DNA from: a virus
Lineage: Duplodnaviria; Heunggongvirae; Uroviricota; Caudoviricetes
Virus record (IMG/VR): IMGVR_UViG_2541047121_000025
Reading direction: 5' to 3' (one strand)
DNA: 4,710 bases
The position numbers and the translations under genes were made by a program. Within the stretch, counting starts at the first letter, position 1. Every line of letters begins with the position of its first letter. The notes beneath the pieces were generated by a model, which saw only the letters and a program-made list of their open reading frames with translations, ran no database searches and was not told the origin of the DNA. Below, piece by piece: positions 1 through 4,710 of this stretch.

Positions 1-70
1 ACTCTGTACAGGATTATGTAGTTAGGGTGGGTCACGATCTCTCCCAATCCAGAAACCCGTTCGCTTGGTG
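1..70. repeat. 70-bp direct repeat, copy A (69/70 identical to 239-308); corresponds to an internal segment of the toxin gene, lying immediately left of the left operator
   Basis: Positions 1-70 match 239-308 with one mismatch (44 c vs 282 t). Similarity ends at 71/309. Copy A begins at the window edge, so its true left boundary is unknown. Confidence 0.9.
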
Positions 71-75
71 TATGT

Positions 76-120
76 AATCTACAATAAAAAACTGTTTTTG
101 TGTCAACAGTTTTTAATTGT
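76..120 (-). promoter_or_regulatory. Left operator/promoter unit (OL/pL-like): imperfect inverted repeat ACAATAAAAAACTGT-N10-ACAGTTTTTAATTGT with candidate leftward promoter
   Basis: Arms of 15 bp at 81-95 and 106-120; the left arm is identical to the 15-mer at 1116-1130. On the minus strand a consensus -35 TTGACA (plus 101-106) and a -10-like TAGATT (plus 76-81) are separated by 19 bp. The whole unit is about 90 percent identical to the right unit when reverse-complemented. Promoter assignment is inference. Confidence 0.5.
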
Positions 121-130
121 TGTTTTGGGC

Positions 131-153
131 AAAAAAATCCCTCGAAAGAGGGA
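131..153 (-). terminator. Rho-independent terminator for the leftward regulator-antitoxin-toxin operon
   Basis: On the minus strand: 6-bp stem TCCCTC / GAGGGA with a 4-nt loop (plus 138-153) followed by a run of 7 T (plus 131-137 is AAAAAAA). It lies 18 nt downstream of the toxin stop codon at 172-174. Confidence 0.6.
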
Positions 154-171
154 GTATGAAAATTGTTCAAC

Positions 172-459
172 TCAGATAGAGAAGGGAAATTGTCGCCGAG
201 AATGTGTCACGCTTACAATCTCAATGCTTGAAGCAGCTACTCTGTACAGGATTATGTAGTTAGGGTGGGTCACGATCTCTCTCAATCCAGAAACCCGTTC
301 GCTTGGTGGATATAAGTACGGATGCTCAGATAGAGGTAATACCGATGTTTCAATGCGTATTTTTAGTCTACGTGCTGCCGGTGGGTTCTCCTTGGCGATG
401 TAAGTTATGATCTGGCGCAAATCATCGCGAGCAGACGGTAGCCATAAAATGGGTAACAT
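172..459 (-). CDS. parE2: Type II toxin, ParE/RelE superfamily (ParE2-like), 95 aa
   Basis: Complete ORF. The core REIVTHPNYIILYRV and the C-terminal IEIVSVTHSRRQ match the ParE/RelE fold pattern as I recall it. Its ATG overlaps the stop of the upstream antitoxin ORF (TAATG at 457-461), typical of translationally coupled toxin-antitoxin pairs. Family assigned from memory, not from a search. Confidence 0.8.
   Translation of the reverse strand: MLPILWLPSARDDLRQIITYIAKENPPAARRLKIRIETSVLPLSEHPYLYPPSERVSGLREIVTHPNYIILYRVAASSIEIVSVTHSRRQFPFSI
239..308. repeat. 70-bp direct repeat, copy B, inside the toxin gene (about codons 51-74)
   Basis: Partner of 1-70. On the minus strand it encodes PPSERVSGLREIVTHPNYIILYRV. 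The single mismatch would change R to G if copy A were read in the same frame. Confidence 0.9.
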
Positions 460-650
460 TACTCGCTCTTGTTAGTTACAGCAATTTGAGCAATAAGATT
501 TTCCATTTCAGCCATTACCTCGTCATGTGGAATTGCGGGGCGAGTGTCTGCAAGGCTTGACGTTACTTTAGTGCGCAACCATTCGTTGTAACTGTTTTCT
601 TGTTCGGTAGTTTCGAATTCTGAAACTATCGGAGAAAGGGCTGTACCCAT
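459..650 (-). CDS. paaA2: Small antitoxin (PaaA2-like), 63 aa, partner of the ParE toxin
   Basis: Complete 63-aa ORF directly upstream of and overlapping the toxin start. Minus-strand Shine-Dalgarno GAGGAG sits about 8 nt before the ATG at 650. The motif ALSPIVSEFETTEQENSYNEWLR matches my recollection of PaaA2; identity with the named protein is unverified. Confidence 0.75.
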   Translation of the reverse strand: MGTALSPIVSEFETTEQENSYNEWLRTKVTSSLADTRPAIPHDEVMAEMENLIAQIAVTNKSE

Positions 651-677
651 GGCATAACTCCTCTTCTTGTACTGTGG

Positions 678-1079
678 TCACGCCCGGCGGCTTTTTTGTG
701 CCGCCAGCCACCTAGCAATGGTTTCTTCCATTGATTTTTTCTTGTCTTTGATTTCTTGAAGCATTTTTTCTTGGTCTTCCTCAGGAAACGCACTAAAAGC
801 TTGGAGCAGTTCGCGTTGGCGAGGACCAATTTTCATCGTGTCAGGGGTGAAAATTTGCTCACACTCTTCAGGAGGCAATAAAAACCAATGCAATGGATGC
901 CCTGAAACCTCAACCAGTTTATCCAAACTTGAGGCTTTAGGTGTAGCCTTACCGCTGACCCATTGTTGAACAGTTTGTTGTGTCACACCAATTCTACGGG
1001 CAAGCTCAGCCTGGCTCCATCCAGTTTCCTGAAGAAGCTTGCTGATTCTGTACATAGATACTTCTAGGGCGCTCATCAT
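678..1079 (-). CDS. paaR2: HTH (XRE/Cro-CI type) transcriptional regulator, PaaR2-like; probable repressor in the cI position
   Basis: 133-aa ORF with a helix-turn-helix signature ELARRIGVTQQTVQQWVSG near the N-terminus. It is the first gene of the leftward operon and is divergent from the Cro-like gene across a 108-bp operator region. Start is uncertain (ATG at 1079, 1076 or 1055; no clear Shine-Dalgarno, so possibly leaderless). Confidence 0.8.
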   Translation of the reverse strand: MMSALEVSMYRISKLLQETGWSQAELARRIGVTQQTVQQWVSGKATPKASSLDKLVEVSGHPLHWFLLPPEECEQIFTPDTMKIGPRQRELLQAFSAFPEEDQEKMLQEIKDKKKSMEETIARWLAAQKSRRA

Positions 1080-1115
1080 TATTCAATTTTACAGGTAAAT
1101 ACTGTTAAAAGCATC

Positions 1116-1159
1116 ACAATAAAAAACTGTTGATTGCATACAGTTTTTTATTGTAGGTT
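1116..1159 (+). promoter_or_regulatory. Right operator/promoter unit (OR/pR-like): perfect inverted repeat ACAATAAAAAACTGT-N9-ACAGTTTTTTATTGT with candidate rightward promoter
   Basis: Perfect 15-bp inverted arms at 1116-1130 and 1140-1154. Candidate -35 TTGATT at 1130-1135 and -10-like TAGGTT at 1154-1159 with an 18-bp spacer; an alternative -10 TATAGT lies at 1165-1170. A candidate leftward -10 TAAAAT (plus 1086-1091) would place the regulator transcript start at its ATG. Promoter elements are inferred. Confidence 0.55.
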
Positions 1160-1187
1160 TTGCTTATAGTTTTTAGAGGAGGGCAAA

Positions 1188-1460
1188 ATGCTAGATAGCA
1201 CTCGCGAAAAAATTAGGCAGAAATACACTCAGGCTGAAATAGGTCGTTATATGGGGGTCGCTCAACAGACTGTTTGGCAATGGTTTAGCTTTGGCGTTCC
1301 CCCAAAGCAGGTAATTCCGTTATGCCAACTAATGAAGTGGGAAGTTACCCCGCATGAAATCCGCCCAGATATTTATCCTAACCCAACCGACGGTTTACCT
1401 GTTGGATGTAAGGTTAACACATCAAATGCGCCGGAGTTGATTCATGAAAATCAAGCATGA
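1188..1460 (+). CDS. ydaS: Cro-like DNA-binding protein, YdaS family, 90 aa
   Basis: Strong Shine-Dalgarno AGAGGAGGG at 1175-1183. HTH-like GVAQQTVWQW and a conserved RPDIYP motif typical of YdaS/Cro-like proteins of Rac-type prophages. Divergent from the repressor gene. Confidence 0.8.
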   Translation: MLDSTREKIRQKYTQAEIGRYMGVAQQTVWQWFSFGVPPKQVIPLCQLMKWEVTPHEIRPDIYPNPTDGLPVGCKVNTSNAPELIHENQA

Positions 1461-1869
1461 ACACATCCGCATGGCGATGAATGCCTGGGCGCATCCGGAC
1501 GGCGAAAAAGTACCGGCTGCGAAAATTACCAAAGCGTATTTCGAGCTGGGAATGACGTTCCCGGAACTGTATGACGACAGCCATCCGGAAGCCATGGCTC
1601 GCAATACTCAGAAAATTTTCCGCTGGGTGGAGAAAGACACTCCTGATGCGGTTAAAAAAATTCAGGCGTTGTTACCAGCGATCGAAAAAGCGATGCCGCC
1701 TCCGCTGGTGGCCCGAATGCGCAGCCACAGTTCCGCTTATTTTCGGGAGTTGGTAGAGACGAAGGAACGGCTGGTGAAAGATATTGATGATTTCGTTGCA
1801 TCAGCGATCGTTCTGTTCGATCAGATGAATCGTGGTGGCCCGGCAGGAAACACTCTGGCTGTGCATTAA
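1444..1869 (+). CDS. ydaT: CII-like regulator, YdaT family, 141 aa
   Basis: N-terminus MKIKHEHI and overall size match the YdaT family as I recall it. GGAG lies 9 nt upstream; the start overlaps the end of ydaS by 17 nt. The position after the cro-like gene mirrors cII in lambda. Confidence 0.75.
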   Translation: MKIKHEHIRMAMNAWAHPDGEKVPAAKITKAYFELGMTFPELYDDSHPEAMARNTQKIFRWVEKDTPDAVKKIQALLPAIEKAMPPPLVARMRSHSSAYFRELVETKERLVKDIDDFVASAIVLFDQMNRGGPAGNTLAVH

Positions 1870-1882
1870 TTGGGTAATAAAT

Positions 1883-2392
1883 ATGAGTAATGACAAAAAA
1901 TTGACACTGAGCGTTTACGAAAACAGTCCGCACATCTGGCGTGGCGGTTTATCTGATGTGGAGCTGGCAGAGTGGTTGATACATAAAGCTAATGCGCTGC
2001 TCTGGCGTTTGTCAGCCAGAGAACAGCGCAAGGAAACCAGAATAAAGCTGGCTGATGCAGAAGCGTGTGCCGGGCTTATTGAGGATTATACAAATCTTGG
2101 TATTTCTTCAGCAGAGAGTGATCCCATTCAGCCTCTGAGCAGGGAGTCAATCCAGCACGCTGGTTGTATGGCACATCTTGTAACTGCTCGTCAACATGAG
2201 GTGGGTATTGGATCACTTCCGGCGGGATATTCGCTGATTCCAGAGCTGGTTGAAGCAAGAAAATCAGTTCAGAAAAAGAGAGATGACGCACTTCAATTAT
2301 TGAGAGAGCACTATGGCGCGATACCAGAATGCGAACAGCGTCGATACCCTGAAGGTTATGAATGGATGCAGTCTCTTTTTGAAGTTCGCTAA
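1883..2392 (+). CDS. Hypothetical protein, 169 aa, no recognised domain; accessory gene between the cII-like and replication genes
   Basis: ATG at 1883 is 14 nt after the ydaT stop (the ORF track extends to 1832 but there is no in-frame ATG before 1883). First-codon-position composition is gene-like (G about 34 percent, T about 17 percent), whereas the overlapping minus-strand ORF has the reverse bias. No strong Shine-Dalgarno. Predicted largely helical. Confidence 0.6.
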   Translation: MSNDKKLTLSVYENSPHIWRGGLSDVELAEWLIHKANALLWRLSAREQRKETRIKLADAEACAGLIEDYTNLGISSAESDPIQPLSRESIQHAGCMAHLVTARQHEVGIGSLPAGYSLIPELVEARKSVQKKRDDALQLLREHYGAIPECEQRRYPEGYEWMQSLFEVR

Positions 2393-2609
2393 TCAATATG
2401 TCGAGACGAAGGTATGTTTCGGCGCGCAGCCAGGCTCTGTAATCCGGGAGCATTTCGGGGCTGTTACACCAGCGGTTTGTTGCTGCAACATTTAATACAT
2501 GAGCCTGATAAAGGCTTTTCAAAAAATACATGTCGAACCTCCTCTGGTTCTGTCGATTGGGAACCACAGATTATATCCGGAGGAAGGTTCGGCACCAGAT
2601 GAGGTAGCC

Positions 2610-3701
2610 ATGCGTGATTACGCAAAAGTTTCTCCGCGATTCTGGCTGGGAGAAACGGGGAGAGAACTTAGAAAGGCGGGTGCAGAAGCGCAAGTTGTTG
2701 CTTTTTACCTGATGACATCCCCTCACGCAAATATGCTGGGTTTGTATTACCTGCCAGTTTTATACCTTGCTCATGAAACCGGGCTTGGTCTGGAAGGGGC
2801 TTCAAAGGGGCTTAAAAGGGCTGTTGAAGCTGGTTTTTGTAGCTATGACCATGATGCAGAGATGGTCTGGGTCCATGAAATGGCAGCCTGGCAGGTTGGG
2901 GAAACGTTGAAGCCTGGCGATAACCGTTGTGCAGGTGTCAGGAATGAGTATGCATCATTACCTGAAAACGCTTTTCTGTCAGTGTTTTACGACAGATATA
3001 AAACGGATTTCCATCTGGATGTGAGGCGGAATAATAGCCGAAATTCGGTAAGGGGCTTCGAAGGGGCTTTTAAGGGGCTTCGAAGCCAAGAACAGGAACA
3101 GGAGCAGGAGAAAGAACAGGAACAGGACAAAAACACTATGGTTCATGGCAAAAAAAACACCACGAACCAGGCAGGGGATGTTCAGACCGTCAATCCTGGT
3201 CAGCCAGCAGGCACGACACCGGAAGCCGATTCGGGCGCTGTGCAGCAGGTGATGACCGCAGGGTCGGAGCAATCACACCAACTGCAGCAGCCTGAAGCCG
3301 ATTCCGCCATTCAGCGGGAAGCCGATCGGGTAGTCCCGGAAAGCACCGGGCAGTCTGTGGGACGAGTGGATTATCCGGATGTGTTCGAACAGGTCTGGCG
3401 GGAATACCCGTTGCGTGCTGGGGCAAACCCGAAGAAATCCGCTTTCAGTGCCTGGAAGGCCAGATTGCGCGAGGGGGTGCCACCAGAGACCATGCTGGAT
3501 GGTGTGAGGCGTTACGCGAGATACCTGGCGGCGACCGGGAAAGCGGGAACGGAATTTGTTCAGCGAGCGACGACGTTTTTTGGGCCGGACCGGAATTTTG
3601 AAAACCCCTGGTTGCTCCCGGTAAGCGGCACGAACAACCAGCGTTGTGTGAATCATATTTCTGAACCGGATACCGAAATTCCGCCGGGATTCAGGGGGTG
3701 A
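2610..3701 (+). CDS. Replication initiator/organiser, lambda O-like or YdaU-like, with internal candidate iterons and an EQ-rich linker
   Basis: GAGG Shine-Dalgarno at 2601-2604 before ATG 2610. The N-terminal segment MRDYAKVSPRFWLGETGRELRK...LGLYYLPVLYLAHETG and the C-terminal segment YPDVFEQVWREYPLRAGANPKKSAFSAWKARL look like phage replication-initiator domains (assigned from memory). An in-frame ATG at 2499 is an alternative start but has no Shine-Dalgarno. The gene is followed within 7 nt by a DnaC-like gene. Confidence 0.8.
   Translation: MRDYAKVSPRFWLGETGRELRKAGAEAQVVAFYLMTSPHANMLGLYYLPVLYLAHETGLGLEGASKGLKRAVEAGFCSYDHDAEMVWVHEMAAWQVGETLKPGDNRCAGVRNEYASLPENAFLSVFYDRYKTDFHLDVRRNNSRNSVRGFEGAFKGLRSQEQEQEQEKEQEQDKNTMVHGKKNTTNQAGDVQTVNPGQPAGTTPEADSGAVQQVMTAGSEQSHQLQQPEADSAIQREADRVVPESTGQSVGRVDYPDVFEQVWREYPLRAGANPKKSAFSAWKARLREGVPPETMLDGVRRYARYLAATGKAGTEFVQRATTFFGPDRNFENPWLLPVSGTNNQRCVNHISEPDTEIPPGFRG
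2781..2823. repeat. Iteron-like cluster 1: GGGGCTT-type motif at 11-bp spacing
   Basis: GGGGCTT at 2796 and 2807, GGGCTG at 2818 and GGGCTT at 2781. The three phased copies fall in three different codon phases of the initiator gene. Confidence 0.45.
3050..3087. repeat. Iteron-like cluster 2: AAGGGGCTT x3 at 11-bp spacing with an embedded 12-bp palindrome GGCTTCGAAGCC; candidate replication origin core
   Basis: GGGGCTT at 3052, 3063 and 3074, again in three different codon phases. The palindrome GGCTTCGAAGCC is at 3076-3087. A purine-rich, A-rich tract follows directly (3088-3160). Confidence 0.45.
3090..3131 (+). repeat. Hexanucleotide tandem repeat (GAACAG-like x7) encoding an EQEQEQEKEQEQDK linker
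   Basis: Read directly: gaacag gaacag gagcag gagaaa gaacag gaacag gacaaa, in frame with the initiator gene. Confidence 0.85.
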
Positions 3702-3707
3702 TGTGGC

Positions 3708-4454
3708 ATGAAAAACATTGCGGCAGCCGGGGTTCTTGAACGTATTCGCAGACTTGCACCACAGGCGTCGGTTCCACCGTACCGGACGGTGGAGGAGTGG
3801 CGGGAATGGCAACTTGCTGAAGGACGAAAACGCAGCGAGGAGATTAACCGCCAGAATCACCAGTTGCGGGTGGAAAAAATCCTGAATCGTTCGGGCATCC
3901 AGCCTCTGCACAGCAAATGCTCGTTTGCGAATTATCAGGTGCAGAACGACGGGCAAAAATACGCGCTGAGCCAGGCCAAATCCATAGCTGACGAACTGAT
4001 GACCGGGTGCACGAATTTTGTGTTCAGCGGTAAAACCGGCACCGGGAAAAATCACCTTGCAGCGGCGATGGGTAACCGGCTGATGGCGAAGGGGCGCAGC
4101 GTGATTATCGTCACCGTGTCTGATGTCATGAGCGTGTTGCATGACAGCTACGACAACGGCAAATCCGGGGAAAAATTTTTACAGGAGCTTTGCAGTGTTG
4201 ATTTGCTGGTCCTGGATGAAATAGGCGTTCAGCGGGAGACGAAAAACGAGCAGGTGGTATTACACCAGATAATTGATCGCCGGACAGCATCACTGTGCAG
4301 TGTCGGGATGTTAACAAACCTGAATCATGCCGCAATGAGTACACTTCTTGGTGAGAGGATTATGGACCGCATGACCATGAACGGTGGTCGATGGGTGACG
4401 TTTAACTGGGATAGCTGGCGTCCAAATGTCAGCAATATGAGGGTTGTGAAGTAA
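3708..4454 (+). CDS. DnaC-like helicase loader (AAA+, IstB/DnaC family; YdaV-like replication protein), 248 aa
   Basis: Walker A GKTGTGKNHLAAAMG at about 4030-4075 and Walker B LLVLDEIG at about 4204-4227. A G-rich Shine-Dalgarno AGGGGG lies upstream of ATG 3708. It directly follows the initiator gene, as the P/DnaC-type gene does in lambdoid replication modules. Confidence 0.9.
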   Translation: MKNIAAAGVLERIRRLAPQASVPPYRTVEEWREWQLAEGRKRSEEINRQNHQLRVEKILNRSGIQPLHSKCSFANYQVQNDGQKYALSQAKSIADELMTGCTNFVFSGKTGTGKNHLAAAMGNRLMAKGRSVIIVTVSDVMSVLHDSYDNGKSGEKFLQELCSVDLLVLDEIGVQRETKNEQVVLHQIIDRRTASLCSVGMLTNLNHAAMSTLLGERIMDRMTMNGGRWVTFNWDSWRPNVSNMRVVK

Positions 4455-4475
4455 TTTTGTCCGGAGGAAATTTTA

Positions 4476-4710
4476 ATGGAAACCGTATCTGACGCACTGA
4501 AAGCACTGAAAAAAGCCTCTTCACATGTGGTGGCAGCTCGCCTTGGAATCAGTCGTGAAGAGGCTGTCAACGAGCTGTGGGAACTCAAAATAAATGGCGT
4601 CGTTGATAAAACTGGTCACACCTGGTTTCTGGCTGGCGAAGGTGAATCCCGGGTAACCGAAGAGCGGCCAGTAAAATCTGAAGCACAGGATATGCTGACC
4701 AGGGAGGTCG
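4476..4710 (+). CDS. Hypothetical protein, 5' part only (runs off the window end); possible winged-helix DNA-binding fold
   Basis: GGAGG at 4463-4467 then ATG 4476; open to the window end (78 codons, METVSDALKALKKASSHVVAARLGISREEAVNELWELKINGVV...). It is missing from the ORF track because no stop codon is inside the window. The fold guess is weak. Confidence 0.6.
   Translation, partial: METVSDALKALKKASSHVVAARLGISREEAVNELWELKINGVVDKTGHTWFLAGEGESRVTEERPVKSEAQDMLTREV

Follow-up and report, generated by a model that had tools for sequence, protein, structure and literature searches.

A toxin-gene segment repeated beside the left operator of an O157:H7 prophage, probably the end of a 238-bp tandem duplication

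Immunity region and toxin-antitoxin operon

The window is the whole stretch of 4,710 nucleotides that was analysed, from the Caudoviricetes record IMGVR_UViG_2541047121_000025. From 65 to 4710 it is, base for base, the immunity region of an E. coli O157:H7 lambdoid prophage; only bases 1-64 depart from it. The Sakai record annotates this locus as prophage Sp4. Pfam and PDB matches identified a leftward three-gene toxin-antitoxin operon of the PaaR/PaaA/ParE type between a left and a right operator. The gene for a PaaR-type HTH repressor occupies the CI position (678-1079, minus strand; HTH_3 and Phage_CI_repr, PF01381/PF07022). It is followed on the same strand by the gene for a PaaA-type antitoxin of 63 aa (459-650; PF21217; E=1.4e-20 to PaaA2 chain 3zbe_A) and by an intact gene for a ParE-family toxin of 95 aa (172-459; PF05016; E=3e-36 to ParE2 chain 5cw7_B). 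An intrinsic terminator of the operon is predicted at 131-153 on the minus strand, with a stem running from 153 to 138 and then a T run. The right operator is a perfect 15-nt inverted repeat (1116-1154). Rightward from it lie a YdaS-like gene in the Cro position, a YdaT-like gene in the CII position, an O-like gene and a DnaC-like gene.

The left operator (76-125) is an inverted repeat, 76-96/105-125, which is related to the right operator and shares its half-sites. It overlaps a predicted leftward promoter on the minus strand with TTGACA at 106 to 101 and TAGATT at 81 to 76, separated by a spacer of 19 nt. This promoter was not called by a consensus scan because the scan allows spacers of 16-18 nt. 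The left operator is strain-polymorphic at 81-100, where the window reads ACAATAAAAAACTGTTTTTG and seven fetched contexts (L002, L006-L011) read ACAATTAAAAACTGTTTTG. The latter variant has one substitution and a T run that is 1 nt shorter.

A related operon, paaR2-paaA2-parE2 of the cryptic prophage CP-933P/Sp12, has been dissected experimentally (Jurenas et al. 2021, PMC8630535). There, PaaR2 is CI-like, YdaS is Cro-like and YdaT is CII-like, and the promoter PL933P with OL1-3 lies just past parE2 and is repressed about 100-fold by PaaR2 or YdaS (PMC8630535). The window has the same layout, with an operon of HTH repressor, PaaA antitoxin and ParE toxin between left and right operators, diverging YdaS (Cro-like) and YdaT (CII-like) genes and a repressible leftward promoter just beyond the toxin gene, which is a prediction here. 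Its left operator and promoter are likened to PL933P and OL1-3 by analogy, activity having been shown experimentally for the paralogue alone. However, the toxin of the window is only about two-thirds identical to ParE2 (judged by eye on a printed alignment), the operator half-sites (ACAATAAAAAACTGT) are unlike the CP-933P consensus, no duplication has been described there and the locus studied here lies in another prophage (Sp4 in the Sakai annotation). The window locus is a close paralogue of the already characterised CP-933P system and distinct from that locus.

Further features were observed to the right of the operon. Five exact copies of AAGGGGCTT are arranged in an 11-bp phase in two clusters (2794-2813 and 3050-3080), about 250 bp apart, within the O-like replication gene (2610-3701); only one of 200 shuffles reached the observed count. 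They resemble iterons, which makes this part of the initiator gene a candidate replication origin, comparable to that of lambda. In the O-like protein, a Glu/Gln-rich linker is encoded by a GAACAG-type repeat (3088-3127) whose length varies between strains, with an indel at 3128 relative to strain 7784 and called products of 363-376 aa in other assemblies. Two long ORFs, 1883-2392 on the plus strand (169 aa) and 2076-2531 on the minus strand (151 aa), overlap in antisense by about 300 nt. The latter carries the RefSeq name 'ECs1072 family phage-associated protein', and neither ORF has a Pfam match.

The direct repeat and its junction

Positions 1-70 (copy A) and 239-308 (copy B) are direct repeats with 69 of 70 bases identical and a start-to-start spacing of 238. 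The sole difference is c at 44 versus t at 282, and chance alone would give about 2e-33 pairs of this kind in 4.7 kb. The repeat with its single difference had been reported in a preliminary description of this DNA, as had its end at 70/308, and both were re-derived. The first base beyond the repeat is already unlike (T at 71, G at 309) and ungapped extension to 77 nt brings two extra mismatches, at 71 and 74, so that real similarity ends at 70/308. At the other side the repeat starts exactly at base 1 of the window. The 70 bp are thus a lower bound and the true left end may lie outside the window.

Copy B is the original segment within the intact toxin gene and is identical in all 23 loci inspected. 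Codon arithmetic on the 95-aa ORF places it between the second base of codon 51 and the second base of codon 74, in agreement with the range of about 51-74 given before. Copy A, on the minus strand like the toxin gene and cut by the window edge, is a duplicated 3' fragment of it comprising codons 51-74. As also described earlier, it lies outside any complete ORF of the window and abuts the inverted repeat of the left operator on its outer side. Its private c at 44 changes Arg60 to Gly in the toxin frame. A transposon target-site duplication or IS scar was rejected, as it had been before on grounds of length, since the repeat measures at least 70 bp compared to 2-14 bp and there are neither a transposase nor terminal inverted repeats between the copies.

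Homology to the ancestral sequence begins with the hexamer TTGGTG at 65-70, which is derivable from either parent. Its partner TTGGTG at 303-308 lies in codons 51-53 of the toxin gene, where the duplicated unit has its right end. Over the ancestral 1.7 kb, this hexamer is present at two places only, 65 and 303, and these are the two breakpoints. An identity of at least 6 nt was found for 0.18% of random breakpoint pairs of this sequence (chance about 0.002). Across the junction, CGCTTGGTG as at 300-308 abuts TATGTAATC at 71-79, i.e. the end of a unit is followed by the start of a unit, and the repeat spacing equals the unit length of 238. From this spacing and the junction geometry, we infer a 238-bp duplication unit whose second complete copy is 71-308. 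It contains the left operator and promoter, the operon terminator and the last 137 nt of the toxin gene.

Direct copies, an end-to-start junction, breakpoint microhomology beyond chance and a single-copy allele in relatives (see below) are what a tandem duplication leaves behind. With modest confidence, copy A is therefore taken as the end of a recent, strain-private tandem duplication of 238 bp with its junction at the 6-base microhomology. A nascent strand ending in TTGGTG of the toxin gene (303-308) would have re-paired with TTGGTG at 65-70, after which replication would have copied 71-308 once more. Read leftward, the predicted order is the intact regulator-antitoxin-toxin operon, terminator, operator/promoter and junction, and past the junction toxin codons 51-95, a second terminator, a second operator/promoter and the normal left-arm leader. 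On this model, a window that cuts into the first copy accounts for the repeat starting at base 1, and window 71-238 should recur as the 168 bases left of base 1, with ...GGGGCGGGGTGGGTGGTTGGTG and the DUF1391/ydfB left arm further out. A simple tandem duplication had been dismissed in the preliminary description as the flanks differ. This objection fails because the window begins inside the first copy, and the junction has the form of end-of-unit followed by start-of-unit. The recombination scar offered there as one option was essentially the right idea.

Duplications in E. coli by RecA-independent template switching or slipped misalignment between short direct repeats are well documented (PMC1428787). 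Their junctions show 4-15 bp of identity and are often G-rich, point mutations occasionally occur beside the junction, and the distance bridged inside a single fork is usually a few hundred to a few thousand bp (PMC1428787). The repeat resembles the cases of Slack et al. 2006 (PMC1428787) in its direct orientation, its short G-rich junction identity (6 bp here, 4-15 bp reported), the distance of a few hundred bp, the adjacent point mutation and the ancestral single-copy allele in relatives. It differs in that their amplifications were 7-32 kb long and selected, while the unit here has 238 bp and no evident selection, and in that the full first copy is outside the view.

Nothing would be destroyed by such a duplication. 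The intact operon and its terminator would stay in place and the outer operator/promoter would still face the conserved left-arm leader. In the lysogen, the inner promoter would be kept off by repression. Upon derepression, it would start transcription near 69, read toxin codons 52-95 and yield only a toxin-sense RNA of roughly 175 nt, ending at the duplicated terminator.

Relatives of the locus

Using megablast, 65-4710 was matched in hundreds of O157:H7 chromosomes. Compared to strain 7784, 65-3127 is free of mismatches, and past 3127 only the repeat-number indel in the O-like gene was found. Bases 1-64 are unrelated to the ancestral flank, where relatives read ...CTGTGGGGCGGGGTGGGTGG and then TTGGTGTATGTAATC. 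The conserved flank, ...GGGTGG followed by TTGGTG and TATGTAATC, was present in 23 of 23 loci inspected, which comprise 11 genome loci and 12 IMG/VR contigs. The toxin segment is single-copy in all comparators, namely 444 complete E. coli genomes (those containing the 64-mer), the 11 further loci and the 12 IMG/VR contigs. Ten genomic contexts of the exact toxin protein were likewise all single-copy. Copy A, the c at 44 and the novel junction were absent from all 23 loci, and each of the 444 genomes carries t at the variable site. The c was consequently rejected as a natural toxin allele. The comparison with homologous prophages, a check proposed in the preliminary description, thus speaks against conservation of the repeat (0/444 genomes, 0/23 loci).

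No collinear match was found in 5,426 complete E. coli genomes by megablast with 1-1200, 1-140, 1-64 and the whole window as queries, nor in phage or plasmid collections. All top matches place 1-77 on the internal toxin copy, in two pieces, and 99% identity is reached by no record. Exact scans with the novel junction as a 30-mer and a 22-mer gave 0 matches in IMG/VR, GTDB species representatives and JGI metagenomes; as a positive control, the ancestral junction was found 12 times in IMG/VR. An ORF fusing the operator frame to the toxin C-terminus was not present among 5.8 billion predicted proteins. This search returned ordinary toxin clusters and P0002, an ORF running into the ancestral flank. 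P0002 is a 72-aa 'hypothetical protein' of many genomes (277 contigs) on the minus strand at about 65-170 of the window. From a start beside the toxin stop codon it crosses the terminator and leftward promoter and extends into the left-arm leader. The gene call is probably spurious.

This prophage segment, usually a chromosomal one, also occurs at 24094-24429 of NZ_CP124741.1, a 287-kb record in the plasmid collection that is labelled as a plasmid of E. coli O157:H7 EDL933. The replicon may have been wrongly assigned or wrongly assembled.

The lone occurrence of the junction bears on the question whether copy A exists in the organism at all. A chimeric read, a template-switch product, a mis-join or a poor consensus at a contig end could have produced it; such an artefact is considered rather unlikely, but it is the most serious alternative to the tandem duplication. 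The odd segment stands right at base 1 of the window and is the only one of its kind among the 5,426 complete genomes and three large collections, the fused ORF is uncalled among the 5.8 billion proteins and copy A holds the only base difference of the window, a c seen in none of the 444 genomes. Moreover, polymerase template switching in vitro likewise uses short microhomology. Edge position, private base and lone occurrence would be explained almost as well by a chimera formed in vitro or a bad contig end as by a duplication. However, a de Bruijn or overlap mis-join requires far more than 6 bp of identity, and other draft assemblies run through this region unbroken (contigs of 8-146 kb), so that there is no repeat boundary inviting an error. 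Direct orientation at short range is the classic geometry of slippage in vivo. When assembler k-mer sizes were checked by hand, no standard k yielded a contig start at base 1, and this line of reasoning was dropped.

Some observations also weigh against the tandem duplication itself. Its first copy is outside the window, which makes 'tandem' a prediction, and only about 5% of random window cuts would fall inside a first copy of 238 bp. The 70 bp hold one mismatch and the other 4,646 bp none, and a single private change placed at random would have a chance of about 1.5% of falling in copy A. Even one mismatch exceeds the expectation for a very young duplication, unless the duplication event introduced it, and a chimeric or low-quality sequence end would explain it just as well. 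No second genome among the comparators searched has the junction and could independently confirm its presence in a cell.

Alternatively, copy A could be real and yet not part of a tandem array, being either a short patch from a double template switch, to the toxin gene and back again, or the product of recombination with a second element bearing the same toxin gene. In both cases, the sequence left of the window would not be a further copy of the operator. Only the right-hand junction is visible, a few genomes have two places that match this region, and O157:H7 lambdoid prophages are known to rearrange (PMC8630535). Such an origin is quite improbable. Two events or a second donor would be required, against a single slippage event for the tandem duplication, and the ancestral flank is kept in every context examined, even in those with Rac-like left arms or an inserted IS66 element. 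The donor would have to carry the same allele (69/70). The ParE2 paralogue was rejected as donor, since its protein differs at several residues in this segment. A recurrent mosaic boundary was rejected as well; contexts with different left arms or the IS66 insertion keep ...cggggtgggtgg followed by TTGGTG. In L008 (GCA_047262435.1), IS66-family elements lie about 13 nt outside TTGGTG, directly beyond the left promoter, and replace the left-arm leader.

Toxin remnant, leader RNA or mutation scar

In the preliminary description, copy A was also suspected to be the remnant of a second toxin gene continuing to the left. In a trivial sense this is probably correct, as copy A would be a promoterless 3' fragment left by the duplication. 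A second ParE/RelE paralogue was rejected: the fragment lacks codons 1-50 as well as an ATG, and ahead of codon 51 its frame enters the operator and promoter that stand in place of these codons. It has no antitoxin gene of its own either, with operator and terminator upstream instead. Truncated toxin remnants or paralogues beside toxin-antitoxin loci are similar in being a promoter-proximal piece of toxin coding sequence in sense orientation. In contrast to these, copy A is identical to the neighbouring gene at 69 of 70 bases, lacks codons 1-50 and an antitoxin, and is absent from all relatives examined. This combination argues for a fresh duplicate fragment and not for an old, decaying paralogue.

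The position of the breakpoint had led to the further proposal that the leftward transcript opens with a regulatory leader. If the -10 element is right, the predicted start is at about 69, inside the junction hexamer, which agrees with the proposed start near 70. The significance given to this closeness did not hold: breakpoint and predicted start coincide because the only two TTGGTG hexamers happen to lie there. That copy A acts as a functional leader is highly improbable, whether through a toxin-sense RNA or through a small C-terminal peptide, and whether on toxin-antitoxin expression or on the lysis-lysogeny switch. The breakpoint within about 2 nt of the predicted start would suit it, as would the completeness of the duplicated promoter copy and the GGAG that t to c creates 5 nt upstream of an in-frame GTG (toxin Val63). 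However, the start site is itself a prediction, from a promoter with a 19-nt spacer, and conservation is zero (0/444 genomes, 0/23 loci). No stable fold was obtained (z=+1.5; 189 of 200 shuffles fold at least as well) and no Rfam match at E<=1. An RNA that is sense-identical to the toxin mRNA is unable to pair with it, and under the duplication model a terminator would follow within about 110 nt. The 'RNA-level regulatory mimic' of the preliminary description was given up on the same grounds: absence from 444 of 444 genomes and 23 of 23 loci, the z-score and the missing Rfam match.

At 33-50 on the minus strand, the private t to c at 44 turns TTGAGAGAGATCGTG into TTGGGAGAGATCGTG and thereby creates GGAG before GTG. 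This pair could in principle permit a 33-aa C-terminal toxin peptide from the leftward transcript, and it may well be a coincidence. It would also be very surprising if the duplication were consequential, with the second left operator/promoter altering repressor looping or bistability, and possibly a toxin-sense RNA or a 33-aa ParE peptide that binds or titrates the antitoxin. Most likely, the repeat is a neutral duplication private to this strain, an ordinary mutation scar and not a regulatory device.

The repeat adds a new example to a well-known class of mutation, here in a paralogue of a characterised locus, and it is neither conserved nor designed. Its biological weight is small, as one more slippage-type duplication in a prophage prone to rearrangement, and nothing points to selection or conservation. 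The practical lesson is that a repeat clipped by a window edge can mimic an exotic regulatory arrangement. Should the duplication prove real, its strain could serve studies on PaaR as a naturally occurring variant, with two operators, of a bistable CI/Cro-like switch.
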